From positions 64,001 to 128,000 of the forward strand of contig OZ223481.1 in assembly GCA_965140785.1 (NCBI GenBank): 64,000 nucleotides of DNA. Reading direction: 5' to 3'. The stretch is from an uncultured Ruficoccus sp. GTDB taxonomy: Bacteria > Verrucomicrobiota > Verrucomicrobiia > Opitutales > Cerasicoccaceae. Shown piece after piece: positions 6,613 through 18,241 of the stretch (its first letter is position 1; each line of letters starts with the position of its first letter). Below the pieces are notes generated by a model that did no database searches, had not been told where the DNA came from, and saw only the letters and a list, made by a program, of their open reading frames with translations. The position numbers and the translations under genes are program-made.

Positions 6613-8451
<1,839 letters not shown>

Positions 8452-8463
<12 letters not shown>

Positions 8464-8476
8464 ATTTCCTATAACA
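8452..8476 (+). repeat. left attachment site (core repeat plus attP half-arm)
   Basis: ACGGTGGAGTAGATTTCCTATAACA; restores the glmS ...TVE* end. Confidence 0.9.
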
Positions 8477-8862
8477 AAAAGGGATTGGGGAATCCTTATC
8501 TCTTTTACGGCAACGCTCAAGACCCAGCGACTGTCGGTCAACTACGTCGGGAACAAGCGTACGTGTCGCCAAACACTTATCATTGAGCTACATAGTCAAG
8601 GACTCAATGACCGTCAAATAGCCGATCACCTGAACGGATTGGATATTACCTCACCTACAGGGAAAAGGTACTATCCTGAGCTTGTATTCGCTGTTCGTAA
8701 AAAGCTAAAGGCACGCCAGCAGAGACTTGAGGAATCAAAGCTATCCATTGGGAAAATGGACATTTGTAAATTAATTGTAAAAAATAAAGAAATGCGATAA
8801 ATTTTCAAAAAAACCCAAAATCCGGAATCGAGGCCTATAAATACTAGTAAAAGGGCCCAATA

Positions 8863-9336
8863 ATGACTTCGGATAGTATACGCAATGCAACCAGATTATT
8901 CCTAAATAGTAGGATAGAAGACTATTCAAATTGCATAGCTCTCACCTTAACGATGAAACAATATTCAGGGGGCTTTAAATTAGACGAAGTGCGTGCCAGC
9001 AAGGACTTTAGGCACTTCATGAATATACTAAATAAGAAGACATTTGGCAAGGCTTTTCAACGTTTCGGGAAACGAATATCAGTCGTACCAGTGATGGAAA
9101 ACTCAGAAAACGAACGTCTGCACTTTCATGCCTTACTTCAATGCCCTGATAAATACTCTTGGACTGCGGGCCAGGCCATTTTTGCGCTAAAAGCACAGTC
9201 TTTATGGAAAAAGACACACTTTGGATATGACCAAACGTCCAGTCGGTTGGCGGCCGACAAAGGCTGGACGGGTTACATAACCAAACTCAAAGGACAAGCC
9301 GATCAGATAGACTGGGAAAATTTCCACTGGAATTGA
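8863..9336 (+). CDS. small HUH endonuclease / rolling-circle replication initiator-like protein
   Basis: Motifs in RCR order: 'ALTLT' (I), 'RLHFHALL' (II, HUH), 'YITK' (III, YxxK). Confidence 0.75.
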   Translation: MTSDSIRNATRLFLNSRIEDYSNCIALTLTMKQYSGGFKLDEVRASKDFRHFMNILNKKTFGKAFQRFGKRISVVPVMENSENERLHFHALLQCPDKYSWTAGQAIFALKAQSLWKKTHFGYDQTSSRLAADKGWTGYITKLKGQADQIDWENFHWN

Positions 9337-9554
9337 CGGGTATAAACCCCTTTTCCATTTCCGAGTAGCATATCAAGGAGCGAAATAGCCCCTTGATACT
9401 TTGTTATATACAGAAACAACAAATTCCTAGAGTATATAATATCCTATATGTCAAAGAATAAAGTTATTCAGACAGTACACAGAGTTCTCCTAAGATAATT
9501 CTGATTCATATCTACAAAGGGATGCCGCAAGGCATCAGGCATCTTGATGCCTTC

Positions 9555-9791
9555 TCAAGGTTCCACTACTGGATCCAAGTCCTCCAGTTCCTTGATTATC
9601 TCTGACGGGAAACAGTCAAGAGCCCGAGCAATCAAGAAAATCGTAGTCAGCGTTGGCTGAAATTTACCGTTCTCGATTTCAGACAGGAAACTTCGGTCTA
9701 TCCCTGCCCGTTCGCACAGGCTATCCTGCGAAAGCTTCAACTGACTCCTTCTGCGAGCGATTACACGGCCAAATGCATGCTTAATATCCAA
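9555..9791 (-). CDS. XRE-family HTH regulator resembling restriction-modification controller (C) proteins
   Basis: 'LSQDSLCERAGIDRSFLSEIENGKFQPTLTTIFLIARAL'. Confidence 0.85.
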   Translation of the reverse strand: MDIKHAFGRVIARRRSQLKLSQDSLCERAGIDRSFLSEIENGKFQPTLTTIFLIARALDCFPSEIIKELEDLDPVVEP

Positions 9792-9821
9792 GCCATGATT
9801 ATAAAAGATTTACATTGGCCA

Positions 9822-9845
9822 ATCTGTAGGATATATCCTACAGAT
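9822..9845. promoter_or_regulatory. perfect 24-bp palindromic operator candidate
   Basis: ATCTGTAGGATA|TATCCTACAGAT between the divergent HTH gene and the DUF4352-like gene. Confidence 0.7.
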
Positions 9846-10316
9846 AATAAACCGATGCAGTAACGCACTCTAGTCACTTAACCCATCACTAAAAACATGC
9901 CCGAGACAGACGTCCCTCACCAATCGAAGAAAAAGAAAAAGAAAAATGGCTGCATGATCGCCATCATAGCCGTTGCAGTAATCGCCATTCTAGGAATTGG
10001 TGGATTCTTGGTAGTAGGCGGTTTGTTCGTGACCGGAGCCGCAGTAGCTGTCGATCAAGCCATTAAAGAAGAAAACCGTATTCCAGAAGAAATCTTGCCC
10101 CTCGATGGATCAACACAAACCGGCGAATACGAGATTACGGTCTATGATATCCAAGAATTTGCGTCAGTCGGCAATGAATTCTACTCAGTACAAGCCTCCG
10201 AAGGTGCCACATTCGTAGCCGTACTTTGGGGCTATAAAAACACGACAAGCTGACCGTGTCCACTTAAACTGTGCCACTTGCAAAGTTAGTCTGAGTGCTT
10301 AGAAAGGACTCAGACG

Positions 10317-10583
10317 ATGAAAGGCAAGCGATACAGTACAGAGCAAAAAATCCGCATTTTACGCGCCGCTGATGCTGGCAGAGCGATCGTGGATGTCTGC
10401 CGCGAGGCAGGGATCAGCGAGCAGACGTTCCACCGCTGGAAGCGGGAGCTTGGGATGCTGGAAGTCGATCAGGCCAAGCAACTGAAGGAACTGCAAAAGG
10501 AGAACGCTCGGCTGAAGCGTATGCTGGCGGACGAGATACTTGGTAAGGAGCTGCTGAAGGAGGCGCTCGAAAAAAAATGGTAA
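10317..10583 (+). CDS. IS3 transposase OrfA
   Basis: HTH 'VCREAGISEQTFHRWK' plus leucine zipper; ends in an A8 run (GAAAAAAAATGG), a -1 frameshift window. Confidence 0.92.
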   Translation: MKGKRYSTEQKIRILRAADAGRAIVDVCREAGISEQTFHRWKRELGMLEVDQAKQLKELQKENARLKRMLADEILGKELLKEALEKKW

Positions 10584-11557
10584 GCCCTGCACACAAGCGC
10601 GAGATGGCGCAAACTCTGGTGTCGCAGGGCAGATGTTCAGCGCGGGCGGCCTGCCGTCACTTTGGGTTGCATCGCAGTACCTTCGGCTATCAGGCGAAGG
10701 AGACTACGCCCTGGTTGGCAAAGTTACGTGGGGCTTTGCGTCGCAAGAGCGAAGCGCATCCCGAGCTGGGTTACCCGAAAATCACTCATCTACTCAAGCG
10801 CGATGGTTGGGACGTAGGTAAGCGGCTGGTGCAGCGCCTGCGCCAGGAGATGGGGCTGAAGTGTCCGACTAAGAAGCCTCGTCAGCGTCGGCGCGGCCCC
10901 TCGACGGGCTTACCGACAAAGGCTACTCATCGCAACCACGTGTGGACCTGCGACTTCGTGGCCGACCGTACGGCTAAGGGCGGATCAATCCGCATGCTCA
11001 CGGTACTCGATGAGTACACCCGTGAGTGCCTGTGCATCCACGTCGATCGCCACCTCAACGCCGCCAAGGTGCGAGCCGTCATGAGCGAGTTGATCAGTGC
11101 CTACGGCAGCCCCGAGCACATCCGTAGCGACAACGGCAGCGAGTTTATCGAGAAGAGCCTGCGTAAATGGTACGCGGACGAGGAGATCAAGACGCTCTAC
11201 ATTGAGCCGGGCAGTCCCTGGCAGAACGGCTACATAGAATCCTTCAACGGCAGACTCCGCGATGAGTGCCTCAACCGCGAGTGGTTTTATACGCTCACCG
11301 AGGCACGCGTGGTCATTGAGGACTGGAGGTGGAAATACAACAACATCCGCCCGCACCGTTCACTCGGACTGCTCACGCCGCTCGAGTTTGCAGCCAAAGA
11401 AACCGCACCAACCCCCTTCGACATCAACTTCCAAGGCATGGGCTACACTCGGGCTACGCCCTCCTTGCGCCCAAGCCTTGACACCCTCTACAACCTAACC
11501 CTAAATCACATCATTAACCCGCTCAGACTAACTCTCAATGCGGTACAGTTTGCGTAG
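10577..11557 (+). CDS. IS3 transposase OrfB (DDE integrase core), -1 frame relative to OrfA
   Basis: 'WTCDF', 'IRSDNGSEF', 'PGSPWQNGYIESFNGRLRDECLN', 'YNNIRPHRSLG'. Confidence 0.95.
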   Translation: MVSPAHKREMAQTLVSQGRCSARAACRHFGLHRSTFGYQAKETTPWLAKLRGALRRKSEAHPELGYPKITHLLKRDGWDVGKRLVQRLRQEMGLKCPTKKPRQRRRGPSTGLPTKATHRNHVWTCDFVADRTAKGGSIRMLTVLDEYTRECLCIHVDRHLNAAKVRAVMSELISAYGSPEHIRSDNGSEFIEKSLRKWYADEEIKTLYIEPGSPWQNGYIESFNGRLRDECLNREWFYTLTEARVVIEDWRWKYNNIRPHRSLGLLTPLEFAAKETAPTPFDINFQGMGYTRATPSLRPSLDTLYNLTLNHIINPLRLTLNAVQFA

Positions 11558-12151
11558 GCAGGTCAAAGCACTCCAATCAGTTCTTTTGATGCCCCACGCA
11601 TAGAGCTGATTTCGCCTGACCTAGCTCGTTACGATCCAGCCGTGGGAGCTAGTAGTGCCCTTGCCTCGACGATTGATGGCCTGAACCAAAAGGCGCTGAG
11701 TGACATCAATCCAGGTATCAGCGTCAAGACAGTAGACGTATTTGAGCTCAGCCAAGAGCTACTCCAACAACCAGGTTGGACGCTTTTGATCAAGGCCGAC
11801 GAGAAAATTCGACTCAAATTAAATTAACCCAAATACACTACGAGGGCCGATAAGCAAACCTCGGAACAAGTAGTCGCAATGTATGCTGGGGTCAAATCTT
11901 GGGCTAAAAGGCGAAACAATTTAAGAATTATCGCCCGAAGGCACAAAGTCCGTCCCAATCAGACGCAAGAATGCGATGAGCATTCTTGCGTACGGATCCT
12001 AGTCCTCAAAAGACTAACAATATCATTTACCCTAAGCCGTTATGAGACCGATACCGTGCAAGTAAGCAGCAACCCTGCATGACAATTGCGAGCTAATACT
12101 CATCAAATAAAATATTGTATCAATCAATATCTATGGCTATCGAATGTCTTC

Positions 12152-14773
12152 ATGAGCAAGACACCTGTATACGTATTTTTGAGCTACTCCCATCACGACG
12201 AGGCACTGCTAGAATGCTTTAATACACAAATCGCCCCACTTACTCATGCCCTAGATCTAAAAATTTTCTATGACAGAAAAGTACATGCCGGAAAATTATT
12301 CTGGGAAGAAATAGACAAATCCATCGGCGAATCAGACATAATCATTTTATTCATTAGCGCCAACTACTTGGCATCTACATCTTGTAGAAAAGAGAAAGAC
12401 ACCGCCTACCAACTAAACAAAGACAATGGCACCATAGTCATACCTATAATATTATCAAAATGCGGATGGGCAGACGATCCAATACTAAAGAAAACATTAA
12501 ATATCCCTACTGACGGGAAACCAGTATTGGATTTCAACAACAAGGAGGATGCATGGCATGATGTTTATGGACACGTAAAACCATTAATGGAAACAGCCTC
12601 TTACGTTAACAATCTCAGACACACCGAACACACCTTACACTGGCTAGAAGATGTTGAGCTTTTAACTCAAAGCCATCCAAGGGTTGGGCAACTACGACTT
12701 CAAGATATCTATGTCGATCCTGAGCTAGAACTCTACGATGATCTAGGAGACTACACGAGCAGCGTGCAATCTGATACCATACTAGATAAAATAAAGTCAA
12801 GAAAGGGAGTAATAATATCTGGCGATGACCAATCTGGAAAAACTTGTTTATGTAAAAATATCTACAATCTATTCGCCAAGAATGGCTATATACCAGTTTA
12901 CGTAAATGACAAAATAAATAAATATAGTGGAAATATAAGCACATTAATATCAAACGCAATTAATGACCAATATATTGATGCCGACAAAGGCATAATTCCC
13001 AAGGAAAAAATTGTATTAATAATCGATGACTTTCACGCCTCAAAACACAGACAAAAAATCGTTGATCAGCTTGAAAACTTTCCACGTAAAATCTTAATAG
13101 TAGACGATATATTCACTATAAATCTACGGGAAGAACTACTCGTTGATGACTACATCCGCATGTCCATTAAGGAATATAAGCCATCATTACGTTATGAAAT
13201 AATACGCAAATGGGTGAACGTTACAGGCGATAAAAATCAATCCACACTGCAAGATATAGAGGCCTACAAAAGACTAGATGAAGGCTATCAATTTATTAAT
13301 GAAACCCTTGGAAGAATATTAGGCGACGGCATAGTTCCGTCATATCCATTCTTCATAATAACCATTCTCAGTGAACAAGATTCATTTGGCACAAAGACCA
13401 CAGAAGAAGTTTCATCTCAAGGGCATTGCTATCAAGCACTTATATACATACACCTAAGAAAGAATGGCGTAAGCAACGAAGACGTTGACTCACACATAAA
13501 CTTCCTAGCAGAATTTGCTTATTACCTCTTTAAAAATAAATTAGAATCTTTAGACAAAAGTGGGTTTGATGATTTTTTTGAAGATTATACAGATAAGTAC
13601 ATTCCGCCAGACAAGCCAGAAACGACACTAGATACACTTATACGTTCAAACATCATACGTTCTGATAGCTTTTCTCATTACTCATTTAGATATCCATATA
13701 TCTTCTACTATTTCATTGCTAAATACCTATCCGACCACATCACCGAACGCTTTGATACGATTACTACAATCGTAGACCATCTGCACGAAAATCAAAATGC
13801 TTACATATCCATATTTTTAGTTCATCATAGCAAAAAGCCTGAGTTGCTAAATTTATTAATGGATACAACAAAAAACCTTTTCACAGAATATAAACCAACT
13901 GGGCTATCTCGATCTGAAATCATGAGCCTTGACAGGGAATTATCGGATTTGGTCAACCAAAGACTTCCATCTCCAAACGAATCGGTAGATGAAAATAGAA
14001 GAAGGAAACTAGAAGCTGAAGATGAATTAGAAAATTCAATAAAGCAAAACCAACGTGACAATGAAGACTCCACTAATCAATATGCCGATGGCGACGACAC
14101 CAAGGATGACGCAGAAATATTGATAAAAGACCTAAGAAAAAGCATTAAAACAGTCGAAGTACTCGGTCGGATAATAAAGAACCGTCATGGATCTCTGAAA
14201 ATTGATATACTGGAACAAGTATTTCAAAATGCAATGGAAGTACACCTAAGAATTTTGACCTCTTACCTAAAAGTCATAGAGAGGAGTGAAGGATCCGATT
14301 CAATCATTTCTTTCCTAGTTGATAGGCTAAAGAATATCACAAATAAAGGCAATAAGCATTACACCGACACGCAGCTAAAGGATATGGCGAGAACAATATA
14401 TTGGAATTTTAATCTTATCCTTATACATGCGATATTTGTTAAAATAGTCCAGTCTCTAGGAGCAGATAAACTCAGAATGATTGTAGAGAACGTATGCCAA
14501 AGAGATCCAACACCTGCTAAATCAATCATTAAGCATGGCATCCTCATGTGGTATTCTAAATCCTTACAGATCGATGAAATTGAAAAAGATTTCATCAATC
14601 TTCCATTCTCGAAGGCAGCGAAAAGAGTAATGAGACTTTTCGTCATTAATTACTGCAGAATGCACTCCATTAATTTCAAGGACAGGCAGAGACTTGAGTC
14701 AAAGCTCGGGTTCTCTTCAAAGCGACTACTGAATGAATCTAACAGCATTAGGCCTGAGAACAAAAAATCCTAG
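12152..14773 (+). CDS. TIR domain + STAND/NACHT-like NTPase; putative anti-phage defence protein
   Basis: TIR 'VFLSYSHHD...ISANYLASTSCRKE'; Walker A 'SGDDQSGKT'; Walker B 'IVLIIDDF'; WHD-like 'YSFRYPYIFYYFIAKYL'. ATG at 12152 preferred to the TTG at 12086. Confidence 0.8.
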   Translation: MSKTPVYVFLSYSHHDEALLECFNTQIAPLTHALDLKIFYDRKVHAGKLFWEEIDKSIGESDIIILFISANYLASTSCRKEKDTAYQLNKDNGTIVIPIILSKCGWADDPILKKTLNIPTDGKPVLDFNNKEDAWHDVYGHVKPLMETASYVNNLRHTEHTLHWLEDVELLTQSHPRVGQLRLQDIYVDPELELYDDLGDYTSSVQSDTILDKIKSRKGVIISGDDQSGKTCLCKNIYNLFAKNGYIPVYVNDKINKYSGNISTLISNAINDQYIDADKGIIPKEKIVLIIDDFHASKHRQKIVDQLENFPRKILIVDDIFTINLREELLVDDYIRMSIKEYKPSLRYEIIRKWVNVTGDKNQSTLQDIEAYKRLDEGYQFINETLGRILGDGIVPSYPFFIITILSEQDSFGTKTTEEVSSQGHCYQALIYIHLRKNGVSNEDVDSHINFLAEFAYYLFKNKLESLDKSGFDDFFEDYTDKYIPPDKPETTLDTLIRSNIIRSDSFSHYSFRYPYIFYYFIAKYLSDHITERFDTITTIVDHLHENQNAYISIFLVHHSKKPELLNLLMDTTKNLFTEYKPTGLSRSEIMSLDRELSDLVNQRLPSPNESVDENRRRKLEAEDELENSIKQNQRDNEDSTNQYADGDDTKDDAEILIKDLRKSIKTVEVLGRIIKNRHGSLKIDILEQVFQNAMEVHLRILTSYLKVIERSEGSDSIISFLVDRLKNITNKGNKHYTDTQLKDMARTIYWNFNLILIHAIFVKIVQSLGADKLRMIVENVCQRDPTPAKSIIKHGILMWYSKSLQIDEIEKDFINLPFSKAAKRVMRLFVINYCRMHSINFKDRQRLESKLGFSSKRLLNESNSIRPENKKS

Positions 14774-14930
14774 TCTTATCAAAAACCTCTCGTGATCCTT
14801 GATTATAGAATATAAATTCCATAACCAGTTACATAACCCATTGGCCACCATCCACTTATTTTAAGCCTTTTTATTTTACGCCCAGCACTGATTATATTAT
14901 ACTAATATTATCATAAAAAATAATCAGTAG

Positions 14931-15530
14931 ATGGCCCTTGGTAAGCAATCAAAGACACTTTCGAGCAAGCAGATCGATGCGATAAGTACCTACCTGCGGA
15001 ACCGCAGAAATGGGATACGAAACAATGCAATCTTCCTTCTCTCGGCCAAAGCCGGACTCCGTGCCAAAGAGATAGCCAATTTAAGATGGTCAATGCTCGT
15101 AGACGCTGATGGCCGCCTAACCCATACCATCAGCCTCACCGATAGCGCAGCCAAAGGTAGCTCTGGACGGACTATCCCCATGAATAAGACCGTGTATGCT
15201 GCCCTAGATGAGCTACTCCACATCGAACAGCCGATAGATGGCTTCACGATACAGACTTCATACGTCGTACGGTCTGAACGTTCGGACAGAACAAGCCCGC
15301 AGGTCATCGTCAATATGTTCCAACGCTGGTATCGAGAGCTTGGCTTCATTGGCTGTTCCTCTCATTCTGGGAGACGAACCTTTATCACCAACGTTGCCCG
15401 AAAAATAAGCCTAGTTGGGGGCTCTATACGTGATGTACAGGCCATCGCTGGGCATAAGCACCTCCAAACCACCCAACGTTACATAGAATGCGACTCTGAG
15501 TCTCAAAGAAAGGTAGTAGACCTTGTCTGA
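14931..15530 (+). CDS. small tyrosine recombinase (catalytic domain only)
   Basis: 'AGLRAKEI' (R), 'HSGRR' (HxxR), 'AGH', 'TTQRY' (Y); 199 aa with no N-terminal arm- or core-binding domain. Confidence 0.88.
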   Translation: MALGKQSKTLSSKQIDAISTYLRNRRNGIRNNAIFLLSAKAGLRAKEIANLRWSMLVDADGRLTHTISLTDSAAKGSSGRTIPMNKTVYAALDELLHIEQPIDGFTIQTSYVVRSERSDRTSPQVIVNMFQRWYRELGFIGCSSHSGRRTFITNVARKISLVGGSIRDVQAIAGHKHLQTTQRYIECDSESQRKVVDLV

Positions 15531-17157
15531 AATACTCCACATCTACACTCGGGTCAGTACCCAAGCTCAAAAGGAAGACGGAACCTCTCTCGACTCGCAG
15601 AAAGAGCAAGGAATCAAAAAGGCAAAAGGGCTGGGGTTTGAATATCGTATTTGGAATGAAGGCGGGCGATCAAGTAGCCATGATGACTTGAGCAACCGGC
15701 CAATCCTAGCATCTCTTCTGGATCACGTTGAAGCCAAGGGAGTAAAGCACCTTTGGGTTTACAACACCGACAGGCTCTCACGGAACGAGAACACCTGGAG
15801 CATGATACGCCTAAGCTTGGTCAAGAACGCAGTCACTCTCTACACGAACTCCGGCCTCTACCAGCTATCAAATGAAAGCGATAAATTAACCCTCGGGTTC
15901 CTTTCGCTAATAAGTGCCTATGAAAATACACTTAGAACAGAAAGAACAAGAACAGGCAAAGTCCAGAGGATCAAAGAAGGCTACTGGATGGGCGGCCCCC
16001 CTCCATATGGGTACAAGCTCATAAGCAAGAAGCTAGAAATCGACCCAGATGAAGCTAAATGGGTGAGATTCATCTTCGAGCAGTTCAGCAAGGGGCAGAC
16101 CGTCAGATGGATACGAAATAAGCTTCTTGAAAACAAGGTGATGACACGGCGGAAAAAGCCTATCTGGAGCCTTGGGTCCATAGAAAAATTGCTAACCAAT
16201 ACGCATTACGGCGGAAGCTACACCTACAAAGACAATAGAGACGATAATGTACACACGAGCGTCTGCCCTAGCCTACTGCCTGCCACGCTGATTATTGAGG
16301 CACAGAAAGAGAAGAAGCGGCGGTCAAAATTCAGGGCAAAAGAAAGCAACCAGAAACATTTCTACCTCCTGCGAGGCTTACTTCGGTGCGATCATTGCGG
16401 GGCACACTTCTCCGCTAGACGGTACGCAGTCCAAAAGCGCTCTAGCTACTATTGCCCCAGAAAGGAAAGAAATTACGCCAATGCCCCAGAGCGATGCGAT
16501 AACAGTAGATACCTGAAAATCGAAGAAACCGATGCCCTCATCGTAAGCACAGTAAAGGAAGTCTTGGCCAACTCGGGCCTATTCAAGCAGGAGATACGAG
16601 ATCATTACCTACAGCAGAATCAAGAGCAGCTACCCAGCAAGGACGATAGACGAAAAATCAAAGCCCGGATTAGGACACTTACCAAAGACATCAATGATAT
16701 CCGGTCCAAAATAACCATACTGGAGGCAGATCATCTACTTGAGAAGACAAGCAACACTCGCCTCAGCTTCATGAAAGTCATATCCGAGATCCAACGCCGG
16801 ATGCTGGTTGCCCAAGCGGAAAAGGAAAAGCTCGAAGAGACTTTGTATAATTTTGACCACCAAGAGCAGTTAAGTGATTGGTTTACAAAATATTCAGAAA
16901 GACTCAATGAGTTGGATGACATGACCGAGAAAGAATGCCAAAACTTTCTTAAAGGCGTTATCGAGTATATTTCAGTGCGCACGATCGATAAGAGGACACA
17001 CCAACTTAAAATCAAATTCCACTTACCGTACGTTAACGGTTATTTAAATCCCAATCAGTCCAACGAAGCAAACAAAGGTCCAGAGGCATCAACTGTAAAA
17101 ACACTGACCGTTGAGACTAAAAAAAAGCCCACAAACAAAACGCTTCAGCCGAAATAA
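15523..17157 (+). CDS. large serine recombinase (integrase)
   Basis: 'IYTRVST' catalytic Ser, 'DRLSR', 'PPYGY' recombinase domain, Zn ribbon 'CDHCG...YYC...C', coiled coil; TTG start overlaps the upstream stop. Confidence 0.93.
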   Translation: MSEILHIYTRVSTQAQKEDGTSLDSQKEQGIKKAKGLGFEYRIWNEGGRSSSHDDLSNRPILASLLDHVEAKGVKHLWVYNTDRLSRNENTWSMIRLSLVKNAVTLYTNSGLYQLSNESDKLTLGFLSLISAYENTLRTERTRTGKVQRIKEGYWMGGPPPYGYKLISKKLEIDPDEAKWVRFIFEQFSKGQTVRWIRNKLLENKVMTRRKKPIWSLGSIEKLLTNTHYGGSYTYKDNRDDNVHTSVCPSLLPATLIIEAQKEKKRRSKFRAKESNQKHFYLLRGLLRCDHCGAHFSARRYAVQKRSSYYCPRKERNYANAPERCDNSRYLKIEETDALIVSTVKEVLANSGLFKQEIRDHYLQQNQEQLPSKDDRRKIKARIRTLTKDINDIRSKITILEADHLLEKTSNTRLSFMKVISEIQRRMLVAQAEKEKLEETLYNFDHQEQLSDWFTKYSERLNELDDMTEKECQNFLKGVIEYISVRTIDKRTHQLKIKFHLPYVNGYLNPNQSNEANKGPEASTVKTLTVETKKKPTNKTLQPK

Positions 17158-17159
17158 GC

Positions 17160-17196
17160 TGTTATAGGAAATCTATATTACCACGGTGGAGTAGAT
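17160..17196 (+). repeat. right attachment site (attP half-arm plus core repeat)
   Basis: TGTTATAGGAAATCTA-TATTACC-ACGGTGGAGTAGAT. Confidence 0.9.
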
Positions 17197-17670
17197 GTGA
17201 TATTTAAGAGTACTGTGGACGTACTCATTCCGGCCTTGGCGTTTGCTATCCCCGCCATCATCTTTTTTCTGTATCTGGCGTCGATCTACCAGTGCGCCCA
17301 ACATAGGCAGGGGTACTTGGCGGCGGGCATAGCTGGAGTTGTGCTCATTGGGGCGATCTACGGAACCTACAAGCTATCCTGGACCGCTGCCGAGCTGACG
17401 ACCAAAACCAAATTCATGGCGAATGCCCGACGCAACCTATACCTGGGCTTTTACCACCTTCAACAAGATATGGAGGCTGGGAAAACGGGACTGGCTCAGG
17501 CAAAAATCAACTACTTGGTGGCGAAATGGGATGGGGTACAATACTTTAACGAAGACGGCGGCAAGTCCCTGAATAAGCTGACTGAAGCTCTCATGAGCAC
17601 TCCTCCCAAGGAATTTATAAACCAAGCGACCGAGACTGAAATCCCTGAAAGTAAAGACAACACGCCGTAG
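17197..17670 (+). CDS. hypothetical membrane protein (neighbour of glmS before the insertion)
   Basis: GTG start immediately after the right att repeat; two hydrophobic helices. Confidence 0.55.
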   Translation: MIFKSTVDVLIPALAFAIPAIIFFLYLASIYQCAQHRQGYLAAGIAGVVLIGAIYGTYKLSWTAAELTTKTKFMANARRNLYLGFYHLQQDMEAGKTGLAQAKINYLVAKWDGVQYFNEDGGKSLNKLTEALMSTPPKEFINQATETEIPESKDNTP

Positions 17671-17693
17671 CCTTGCAGCACGCCCGGTGAAGC

Positions 17694-17728
17694 TTGACAA
17701 AACCACACACGTACAGCATCCTGTCCAC
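17694..17728 (+). promoter_or_regulatory. putative promoter of the yefM-yoeB operon (possibly leaderless)
   Basis: TTGACA (17694), 17 bp spacer, CATCCT (17717), 6 bp, ATG; overlapped by GTACAG..CTGTCC, which resembles a YefM operator. Confidence 0.5.
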
Positions 17729-17980
17729 ATGAGAGCCATCACGTACACGGCGGCGCGGGAGAATCTGGCTGCGACCATGCAGGATGTCTGTGACAGCCGG
17801 GATGCGGTCATCATTACCCGCAACCGCAATCAAGCCGTGGTTATGCTGGCGCAGGAGGAGTACGAGTCGCTGATCGAGACCGCGCACTTGGCCAGCTCTC
17901 CGGCCAACGCCCGCCGTCTGCTCGACTCCATCGCAGCTCTGCGCGGCGGGAAAGGCACCGCGCACGAACTCAGCGAGTAG
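17729..17980 (+). CDS. yefM: Phd/YefM antitoxin
   Basis: 'ITYTAARENLAATMQDV...IITR...EYESLIETAHL.SSPANARRL'. Confidence 0.92.
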   Translation: MRAITYTAARENLAATMQDVCDSRDAVIITRNRNQAVVMLAQEEYESLIETAHLASSPANARRLLDSIAALRGGKGTAHELSE

Positions 17981-17986
17981 CTCGCC

Positions 17987-18241
17987 ATGAGGATCGTTTT
18001 CTCCGAGCAGGCGTGGGAAGATTACCAGTACTGGGTCGCGACGGACAAAAAAGTCCTCAAGCGCGTCAACCTGCTCATCCGCGACTGCCTGCGGGAACCC
18101 TTCGGCGGGCTGGGCAAGCCCGAACCACTCAAGCACCAGTTCCAGGGCTTCTGGTCGCGGCGCATCACTGGGGAGCACCGGCTGGTGTACACGGTCGAAA
18201 ACGGGGATTTACTCATCGCGCAGGTTCGGTTTCACTACTAG
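17987..18241 (+). CDS. yoeB: Txe/YoeB toxin
   Basis: 'AWEDYQYW', 'GLGKPEPLK', 'WSRRITGEHRLVY', 'RFHY'. Confidence 0.95.
   Translation: MRIVFSEQAWEDYQYWVATDKKVLKRVNLLIRDCLREPFGGLGKPEPLKHQFQGFWSRRITGEHRLVYTVENGDLLIAQVRFHY

Follow-up and report, generated by a model that had tools for sequence, protein, structure and literature searches.

Tn7, which carries TnsA, TnsB and TnsC together with a target selector, inserts downstream of glmS and leaves a 5-bp duplication. The staphylococcal cassette chromosomes (SCC, SCCmec) place a cargo island at the 3' end of rlmH (orfX) by means of the large serine recombinases (LSRs) CcrAB or CcrC, and bear replication genes of helicase type. In the ssrA islands of Dehalococcoides, DsiB, a CcrB-like LSR of ~540 residues, lies at the island edge; its gene overlaps att at the 3' end, and the open reading frame (ORF) runs on across att with a divergent, probably non-functional tail. 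The idea of an integrase gene cut by its own reaction has been raised for DsiB only in passing (McMurdie et al. 2011, PMC3146451). Here we describe an island located at the end of glmS in a 64,000-nt stretch of DNA from an uncultured Ruficoccus sp. of the Verrucomicrobiota (contig OZ223481.1, positions 64,001 to 128,000; hereafter, the window, in whose coordinates all positions are given).

We regard it as likely that this island, at 8452-17196, belongs to a family of glmS-targeting LSR elements, and that it combines a backbone of HUH and tyrosine recombinase genes, a slot for defence genes and an integrase gene split at attP. Its most unusual part, which is missing from the first-pass annotation of this DNA, is a conserved ORF that lacks a start codon and begins within the left attachment site.

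Attachment sites and a reading frame across attP

The island is bounded by a 14-nt direct repeat, ACGGTGGAGTAGAT, whose copies lie at 8452-8465 and 17183-17196 with a spacing of 8731 bp. Perfect 16-nt inverted arms are found just inside the repeats, at 8461-8476 and 17160-17175. The AT-rich unit of 8731 bp with exact ends reported in the first-pass annotation is thus recovered, as is its length of 7412 bp once an IS3-family insertion sequence (IS) and one target copy are subtracted (8731 - 1319). GC content drops from 0.59-0.67 in glmS to 0.34-0.51 within the island (8466-17196), the IS3 excepted. The degenerate glmS-end core occurs in two places only in the 64 kb, a count of two being reached by 5 of 100 shuffles.

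The glmS gene (6613-8463, + strand), 85-90% identical to the glmS of four same-genus genomes, ends in GTG ACG GTG GAG TAG, and its final four codons, from 8452 (Thr-Val-Glu-stop), are supplied by the element. At attL (8429-8476), the host B arm is followed by the crossover dinucleotide AC (8452-8453) and by the element P' arm, which ends in TTTCCTATAACA; the P' arm brings its own copy of the remaining codons, so that glmS stays whole. At attR (17160-17207), the element P arm, starting with TGTTATAGGAAATCTA, is followed by the crossover AC (17183-17184) and the host B' arm. Read across attR and attL, attP is a nearly palindromic sequence of 48 bp in which an 8-nt spacer separates two arms of 20 nt; its centre is the AC that opens the Thr codon of V-T-V-E-stop.

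The LSR gene (15523-17157, +) lies at the right end of the island and encodes 544 residues with Resolvase (PF00239, 1.9e-19), Recombinase (PF07508, 5.3e-12) and Zn_ribbon_recom (PF13408, 3.4e-10) domains; R10, V11 and S12 are nearly invariant among 38 sequences. At 17121-17127 (+), 30 nt before the end of its stop codon, the gene contains the slippery heptamer A_AAA_AAG in frame. From this heptamer onwards, the -1 frame of the LSR is open through the P arm and the core. On the other side of the island, the start-less ORF (8453-8800, +), referred to below as the end-piece, begins one base into the repeat and extends for 115 codons that encode a helix-turn-helix (HTH) domain. None of its first 62 codons is ATG, GTG or TTG, and a TGA immediately precedes it, as in all three Ruficoccus-like copies. 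Homologues of the end-piece are detected at E-values of 1e-5 to 1e-25, with 132 hits in 1.84e9 representatives. Between the window and its same-genus relative G001, substitutions at the three codon positions number 2, 7 and 20, and codon changes comprise 18 synonymous and 9 non-synonymous ones, a pattern indicating that the ORF is under coding constraint.

Relatives of the element were also collected by a profile scan of metagenome contigs, which found them in 196 of 262 candidate stretches; 80 loci were kept. All eight of the loci that contain glmS have the gene abutting the left end of the element, with the P' arm kept and a homologue of the start-less ORF directly next to it (E 1e-12 to 1e-24). 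Downstream of the LSR, the core ACnGTnGAnTrr, corresponding to the T-V-E-stop codons, follows the P arm in 50 of 57 junctions, of which 40 run into unrelated DNA, as expected of attR, and 10 into a P' arm, resembling attP. Eight contigs with such an attP-type junction carry an end-piece homologue directly after the LSR, and by coordinate arithmetic it always lies in the LSR -1 frame. This frame remains open for 119-137 codons past the LSR stop and through the homologue in six of them, and the other two run off the contig. The frame relation is kept even though the LSR stop and the P arm are separated by linkers of different lengths.

The heptamer is itself a recurrent feature of the family. 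An in-frame AAAAAAR is present within the last 40 nt of 45 of the 55 distinct LSR genes, against 26 occurrences in 29,941 codon positions of the gene bodies. Since a Lys-rich tail could produce such runs, the relevant comparison is among Lys-Lys pairs, which take the slippery form in 48 of 59 cases (81%) in the tails and in 26 of 292 (8.9%) in the bodies. This codon bias, given Lys-Lys, points to a constraint on the nucleotides. Furthermore, two database entries, protein P0253 and fragment P0128, join LSR and end-piece in a single frame. P0253 has 699 residues, with Resolvase and Recombinase domains; it is 36% identical to the window LSR and matches the end-piece in the corresponding region at E 7e-11.

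Structure prediction provides a further line of evidence. The AF2 model of the end-piece (pLDDT 85) consists of a strand, a three-helix HTH and a second strand. A Foldseek search with this model returned nothing at E <= 0.001, and VIA-align yielded generic HTH folds only: the small terminase of phage G20c ranked first (Z 8.1, root-mean-square deviation (rmsd) 1.8, 54 aligned residues), and the recombinase domain of a serine integrase (Z 7.2, rmsd 2.7, 67 aligned) falls within the range of common arrangements. In Pfam, all Recombinase matches to the end-piece are sub-threshold (E 8e-4 to 0.14). When modelled together with the LSR C-terminus, the end-piece obtained a complex score of 0.64, a mark reached by 116 of 157 solved complexes and by 2 of 215 mismatched pairs, whereas the best of three controls scored 0.00. 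Runs agree in at least 59% of contacts, with a partner pLDDT of at least 73, and the modelled contacts join end-piece strands 11-28 and 95-110 to LSR residues 491-506 and 524-530 and to the helix at 331-361. The model thus supports binding of the end-piece to the LSR C-terminus.

We propose that a dedicated clade of LSRs inserts these elements into the last glmS codons by recombination of attP with the glmS end at the AC crossover. With attP intact, as it would be in an excised circle or at a tandem junction, the end-piece would sit in the -1 frame of the LSR. After a -1 shift at A_AAA_AAG, translation would continue across attP and append an HTH domain, the beta-strands of which would pair with the last strand of the LSR. 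Integration would cut the coding sequence of this long isoform in two, and the state of the DNA would thereby set which form of the integrase can be made. In our reading of these sequences, the start-less ORF probably encodes the C-terminal part of a long LSR isoform, separated from the rest by integration; this isoform would be made only from DNA with an intact attP. Both the frameshift and any role of the long form are inferred. The broader proposal is that a full-length integrase can be encoded only while attP is intact, and that the choice of form, and with it probably the direction or control of recombination, is hard-wired in the topology of the element and requires no separate directionality factor. 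For this proposal we consider the case evenly balanced.

Several observations weigh against a split integrase. The frameshift product is a prediction from sequence, and since P0253 and P0128 both join the two parts at the Lys run, a homopolymer indel error may account for their single frame. The host has tRNA-Lys(CUU) as well as tRNA-Lys(UUU), so that AAG is not a hungry codon here, unlike in E. coli. The attP hairpin, considered as a possible frameshift stimulator, lies mostly 13-35 nt 3' of the heptamer and not at the 5-9 nt usual for such structures; the heptamer is absent from 10 of the 55 LSR genes; and in the related Verrucomicrobiota genome G092, the end-piece is in another frame and there is no A-run. 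Gene callers predict many stand-alone end-pieces of 90-145 residues whose starts fall in the +1 frame of the glmS end, and some hosts could express the piece in trans from the transcript of glmS, a host start being available in 3 of 11 attL loci. No overlapping contig ends were detected among L023-L102, so the attP-type junctions may be tandem arrays, not circles. Likewise, contigs from two sequencing runs contain no joints at 8452 or 17183, although contigs cannot reveal rare circles or empty sites. The complex model, finally, suits a fused domain and a separate subunit equally well.

Much of this evidence bears on a rival explanation, namely that the start-less ORF encodes a separate subunit, such as a recombination directionality factor or a regulator, that acts in trans by binding the LSR C-terminus. 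Such a subunit would be translated from a non-canonical start, or from a start codon and transcript provided by the glmS 3' end, and the A-run would be a mere Lys-rich tail. Consistent with this, many predicted proteins of 118-123 residues begin 12 codons upstream of the core in an alternative glmS frame, the host-side starts and the cognate tRNA for AAG speak for it too, and the complex model fits it equally well. The called proteins, however, form a sample with ascertainment bias, since an ORF must have a start to be called, and the +1 frame of the host glmS end, which supplies the start in the three attL loci that have one, explains many of them. In the remaining 8 of the 11 readable attL loci, there is no canonical start up to and including the first strand (this count, like that of att identities given below for 12 elements, covers the elements other than that of G003, whose repeat was read directly), and the Ruficoccus-like copies have the upstream TGA, yet coding constraint is evident. 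A trans-acting subunit would, moreover, leave unexplained both the preference for the slippery Lys-Lys form in tails over bodies and the -1 relation in eight of eight attP-type contigs despite their differing linkers. We consequently deem this alternative unlikely, though it deserves to be kept in view, and retain the split integrase as the better account of the end-piece.

Cargo turnover, transfer and lifestyle of the element

Sixty relatives were searched, and the LSR was found at E <= 1e-30 in two of them, G001 and G003, both of the same genus. Of 401 genomes sampled from the phylum, five have a family LSR, including G001 and the window's own genome; the other three are G172, G357 and G092. 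Apart from the window, all five Verrucomicrobiota genomes with the LSR (G001, G003, G172, G357 and G092) share the order glmS - end-piece - HUH ... tyrosine recombinase - LSR. In G001 and G003, the element occupies the same glmS position, with a shared backbone and different DNA in the slot. G002 offers the empty site that the first-pass annotation had suggested looking for: its glmS ends in ...GAGTAG and is followed by unrelated DNA, with trpE 559 bp further on. In G004 (L021), a P'-like arm follows directly after the glmS stop, the end-piece frame is cut to ~26 codons and no LSR is present; the next gene, the only one, encodes a 402-residue PD-(D/E)XK protein (PF14281, 8.6e-13; weak match to PADLOC PDC-S26). 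This arrangement has the appearance of a decayed element or remnant.

The variable defence slot anticipated in the first-pass annotation is borne out by these relatives. It lies between a membrane-protein gene and the tyrosine recombinase gene (11828-14801, with bounds taken from the comparison with G001 and G003) and holds different defence candidates in the three relatives for which most of the element is in hand. In the window, it contains a gene for a TIR-STAND NTPase (12086-14773, +; likely true start ATG at 12155) with matches to TIR_2 (5.8e-15), nSTAND_NTPase4, PADLOC PDC-S60 (6.8e-67) and ThsB-like TIR (5.4e-27). Against NCBIfam DS8_antiphage it scores 471.6 bits, below the cut-off of 790, over residues 170-875 only. 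The protein thus fits models of defence systems and is a candidate anti-phage gene. The slot of G001 holds an AAA_13 protein (PADLOC PDC-S06, 3.9e-250), and that of G003 a PD-Lambda-5 A+B pair. No shared repeat was found at the slot boundaries, and exchange of cargo by the tyrosine recombinase is accordingly not indicated. At the left slot edge, G001 (L016 10816-11229) and G003 (L017 8481-8894) also carry a gene for a secreted-looking protein of 137 residues with no family match, which the window lacks.

Comparison of the backbone with its flanks points to recent transfer between species. The backbone values are 98.8, 95.8 and 97.7% identity between the window and G003, and 94.2, 90.8 and 91.3% between the window and G001, whereas the flanking glmS and trpE genes are 90.1 and 88.0% identical in the first pair and 88.2 and 84.6% in the second. 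A backbone more alike than the genes around it argues for transfer after the species split. These values also bear on the possibility that the island is a fixed and immobile remnant inherited vertically in the genus, in which only the cargo is swapped, by homologous recombination. Occupation of the same site in three species, the disruption of one backbone gene by the IS3 and the LSR-less locus of G004 would all fit such a history. They must be set against the excess of backbone over flank identity, which is most pronounced with G003 (96-99% versus 88-90%), against the intact HUH, tyrosine recombinase, LSR and end-piece ORFs with their catalytic residues kept, and against the clean empty site of G002. 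We therefore judge a fixed remnant improbable.

The first gene after the end-piece encodes a minimal HUH rolling-circle Rep-like protein of 157 residues (8863-9336, +; PF23343, REP_ORF2-G2P, 4.2e-8, 33.8 bits against a cut-off of 27.8). L29 and T30 of its LT motif I, H87 and H89 of H-x-H, and Y138, the Tyr of GW..Y, are invariant in nine of nine homologues. An Xre/Cro-type HTH_3 regulator, identified by family scan, follows on the opposite strand (9555-9791, -). Between it and the divergent membrane-protein gene lies a perfect 24-nt palindrome (9822-9845), 100% conserved in G001 and G003, which is probably the operator of the regulator. The membrane-protein gene is cut by the IS3 into a 5' part (9897-10250, +) and a 3' part (11566-11827, +), the latter recognized by comparison with the relatives, and has intact orthologues of 201 residues in G001 and G003. 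Its earlier description as DUF4352-like is a weaker point: the DUF4352 match, measured on the intact orthologue, is sub-threshold (E 6.9e-4, 20.3 bits against a cut-off of 25.9).

The IS3-family element itself (10251-11565, +; NF033516, 8.9e-68) is flanked by the target duplication AAGC (10247-10250 and 11566-11569), and its ends were set from the sequence and from loose ends of contigs; with the duplication, it measures 1319 bp. At least 10 full-length copies exist in the same genome and none is found at this place in G001 or G003, indicating a later insertion by an IS of the host. The G003 copy of the island has an IS of its own, acquired independently (L017 10097-11053), of ~1 kb and with a 318-residue transposase that is IS30-like by eye; it lies between the HUH and HTH genes and splits the element over two contigs. 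Beyond attR, the host side (window 17197-18241) varies among species. In the window, it contains a gene for a 157-residue membrane protein without family match and a Phd/YoeB toxin-antitoxin pair (PF02604, 2.3e-19; PF06769, 4.3e-37). G001 and G002 have another small membrane-protein gene and no toxin-antitoxin, and G003 has the pair and another gene.

Family scans confirmed the HUH, HTH, TIR-STAND NTPase, tyrosine recombinase and serine recombinase genes named in the first-pass annotation. They agree with it, too, in that none of the 11 ORFs scanned against Pfam matches families for Tn7, conjugation or capsid functions. With this gene content, the HUH protein may replicate an excised circle by the rolling-circle mode, and the tyrosine recombinase may resolve multimers; a second, resolvase-like recombinase next to the Rep gene would suit a replicating circle whose multimers have to be resolved.

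A small replicating circle could also belong to a phage satellite. The marine VEIME phage satellites are small integrative elements, some subgroups of which carry both serine and tyrosine recombinases and form rolling circle-like concatemers, and virion-packaged concatemeric elements of this kind have been reported (Eppley et al. 2022, PMC9618062). If the island were such a satellite, concatemers generated by rolling-circle replication after excision would be packaged by a helper phage. The HUH Rep, the small size (7.4 kb without the IS) and the absence of transfer genes accord with this, and small size and, in some VEIMEs, both types of recombinase are shared features. The window element, however, has no helper-related genes, with no terS, alpA, primase or capsid family among its 11 scanned ORFs, and no match in IMG/VR, where none of 43 pattern-matching stretches proved to be a relative. 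None of the phage and plasmid records exceeds 30% identity over the LSR, the HUH gene is absent from many family members, and glmS goes unmentioned in the text of PMC9618062 and in seven of its supplement files. A satellite of the VEIME kind is hence a rather doubtful reading.

The recombinases and the wider LSR family

Upstream of the LSR gene, and overlapping it, lies a gene for a small tyrosine recombinase (14931-15530, +; PF00589, 2.4e-23). Its 199 residues comprise the catalytic domain only (residues 9-188 in Pfam), with no N-terminal core-binding domain, and R44, K75, H145, R148, H175 and Y184 are invariant in 12 of 12 sequences. The FimB and FimE invertases are of similar size. Just upstream of the gene, an inverted repeat, ACTGATTAT ... 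ATAATCAGT (14887-14928), is a candidate recombination site or operator, and could be the recombinase's own. The motif is present in G001 (L016) and L064 as well, and similar ones are found in L040, L065 and L106; it recurs in members whose recombinases are only ~62-65% identical.

Among 8000 scored sequences, 585 LSR homologues were recovered at E <= 1e-20, mostly 43-50% identical and from metagenomes. The closest named homologue is from a Ruficoccus species, at 91% identity. A contig scan with the single LSR as query gave only three distant relatives, in Clostridia and Lachnospiraceae, with 28-32% identity. The window's genome also encodes a second, unrelated serine recombinase (G000:C48:26042-26659, L002), whose open frame spans 500 residues and whose catalytic domain is 30% identical.

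The composition of the family is far from uniform. In the 51 distinct loci with enough upstream DNA, a tyrosine recombinase lies directly upstream of the LSR in 16 and elsewhere in 7, a small serine resolvase stands beside the LSR in 3 (L031, L033 and L038), and no tyrosine recombinase is seen in the DNA at hand in 25, among them L041, which also has the small serine resolvase although it was scored as having none. Of the 80 metagenome loci, 6 have an HUH gene. A conserved HUH/tyrosine/serine core at glmS, as conjectured in the first-pass annotation, is accordingly upheld in all five other Verrucomicrobiota genomes with a family LSR and in some metagenome loci, but not across the wider family, and the distribution in these loci marks the tyrosine recombinase and HUH genes as accessories of a sub-lineage. 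Cargo in other members includes restriction-modification systems, a NERD nuclease and the RelA/SpoT-type PDC-S33. The small serine resolvase (Resolvase and HTH_7 domains) is encoded divergently from the LSR, at L031 9291-9935 (-) and L041 9300-9959 (-) and likewise in L033 and L038, where it replaces the tyrosine recombinase in position; the arrangement mirrors the DsiA/DsiB and CcrA/CcrB pairs.

The att sites indicate which of the two enzymes integrates. In 6 of the 12 elements with both ends, the identity between attL and attR is limited to AC, plus at most 1 nt to its left, and the 14-nt identity of the window is a special case in which host and element codons coincide. In clear cases, the element-side P' arms have GTG as the Val codon, the sole exception being L063 (GTA), a doubtful attP-like call, whereas host-side copies of this codon are GTG, GTC, GTT or GTA. 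A codon that is fixed on the element side and varied on the host side places the exchange point to its left. Serine integrases are recognized by just such a combination, a 2-bp crossover flanked by short inverted half-sites, and the tyrosine recombinase is thereby excluded as integrase. Judged by its att sites, then, the element is integrated by the serine enzyme and not by the tyrosine recombinase, and recombination of attP with attB by the LSR we infer from the empty and filled sites. The two recombinases are not joint integrases: both the att sites and the crossover at AC are those of the serine enzyme. That the small tyrosine recombinase is the integrase, with the 14-bp repeat as its overlap region, is scarcely credible: the exact repeat of the window suffices in length for a tyrosine-recombinase core, but it shrinks to AC in half of the elements, the same att sites serve members that have no tyrosine recombinase at all, and the att arms track the 3' end of the LSR gene.

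Comparison with described systems

The family delineated here would represent a second, single-protein route into the glmS safe site, in which serine integrases act on last codons that are conserved across bacteria. If this is correct, a nearly universal bacterial safe site is accessible to one enzyme family, whose target may be of practical interest as a natural landing pad for genome insertion in a broad range of hosts. The elements appear to be compact carriers of anti-phage genes with fast cargo turnover, and their backbone seems to have been exchanged recently between species of a little-studied phylum. The frameshift-linked end-piece, if true, would be a clear natural case of an integrase gene cut by its own reaction, and would bear on how direction is controlled in serine integrases without a known directionality factor. 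A full-text literature search retrieved no account of glmS-targeting serine-recombinase elements or of frameshifting in serine integrases, with the proviso that bioRxiv supplements, which lay outside the search, may list glmS; neither subject was found in the main text of the Integrase-On-Demand preprint or in the tycheposon preprint.

With Tn7, the island shares the use of the conserved glmS 3' end as a safe site. It differs in that it employs site-specific recombination and not transposition, and the first-pass annotation is supported in its view of a discrete integrative element that arrives at the glmS end other than by the Tn7 route. A Tn7-like element was considered and rejected, given that no tns gene is present among the 11 ORFs, that the insertion falls inside the last codons and that the crossover spans 2 bp.

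The resemblance to SCC is more extensive. In both cases, the target is the 3' end of a conserved housekeeping gene present in single copy, where an LSR places a small cargo island while leaving the gene whole; the cargo is variable, transfer genes are lacking, and remnants and stacked elements are found at the same site. The target, however, is glmS and not rlmH, and the window LSR scores far below the Ccr cut-offs (CcrB, 107.3 bits against 900; CcrA, 64.4 against 700; CcrC, 52.5 against 900). Its partner is a tyrosine recombinase instead of CcrA, an HUH Rep takes the place of the helicase-type genes, and the end-piece spans attP.

Two further precedents concern the putative split of the integrase gene. 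In the intP/intX system of myxophage Mx8 and in the integration-dependent immunity of mycobacteriophages, attP lies within a coding sequence and integration alters the C-terminus of the product. Those systems involve tyrosine integrases or repressors and no recoding, whereas the serine integrase described here appears to need a -1 shift. The heptamer A_AAA_AAG is a -1 frameshift site in dnaX and in transposases of the IS3 family. As in those genes, it is located shortly before the upstream frame ends and would yield two isoforms; in contrast to them, no stimulator was identified at the canonical spacing, and the downstream frame would be completed only by DNA recombination.

The ssrA islands of Dehalococcoides resemble the element in the layout of the integrase gene. 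They too have a second small recombinase beside the LSR, an essential single-copy target gene and an LSR coding sequence that overlaps att, which in the window it would do via the -1 frame. They differ in target (ssrA there, glmS here) and in the second enzyme, since DsiA is a small serine recombinase, as in L031, L033, L038 and L041, while the window has a tyrosine recombinase; the window LSR, in addition, has its own stop codon, a conserved heptamer and a conserved, structured domain of 105 residues beyond attP (PMC3146451). The element is, in sum, a serine-recombinase island of the SCC/Dsi kind, and what its sequence adds to that kind is a start-less ORF that spans attP in the -1 frame of the LSR, together with a conserved slippery heptamer.

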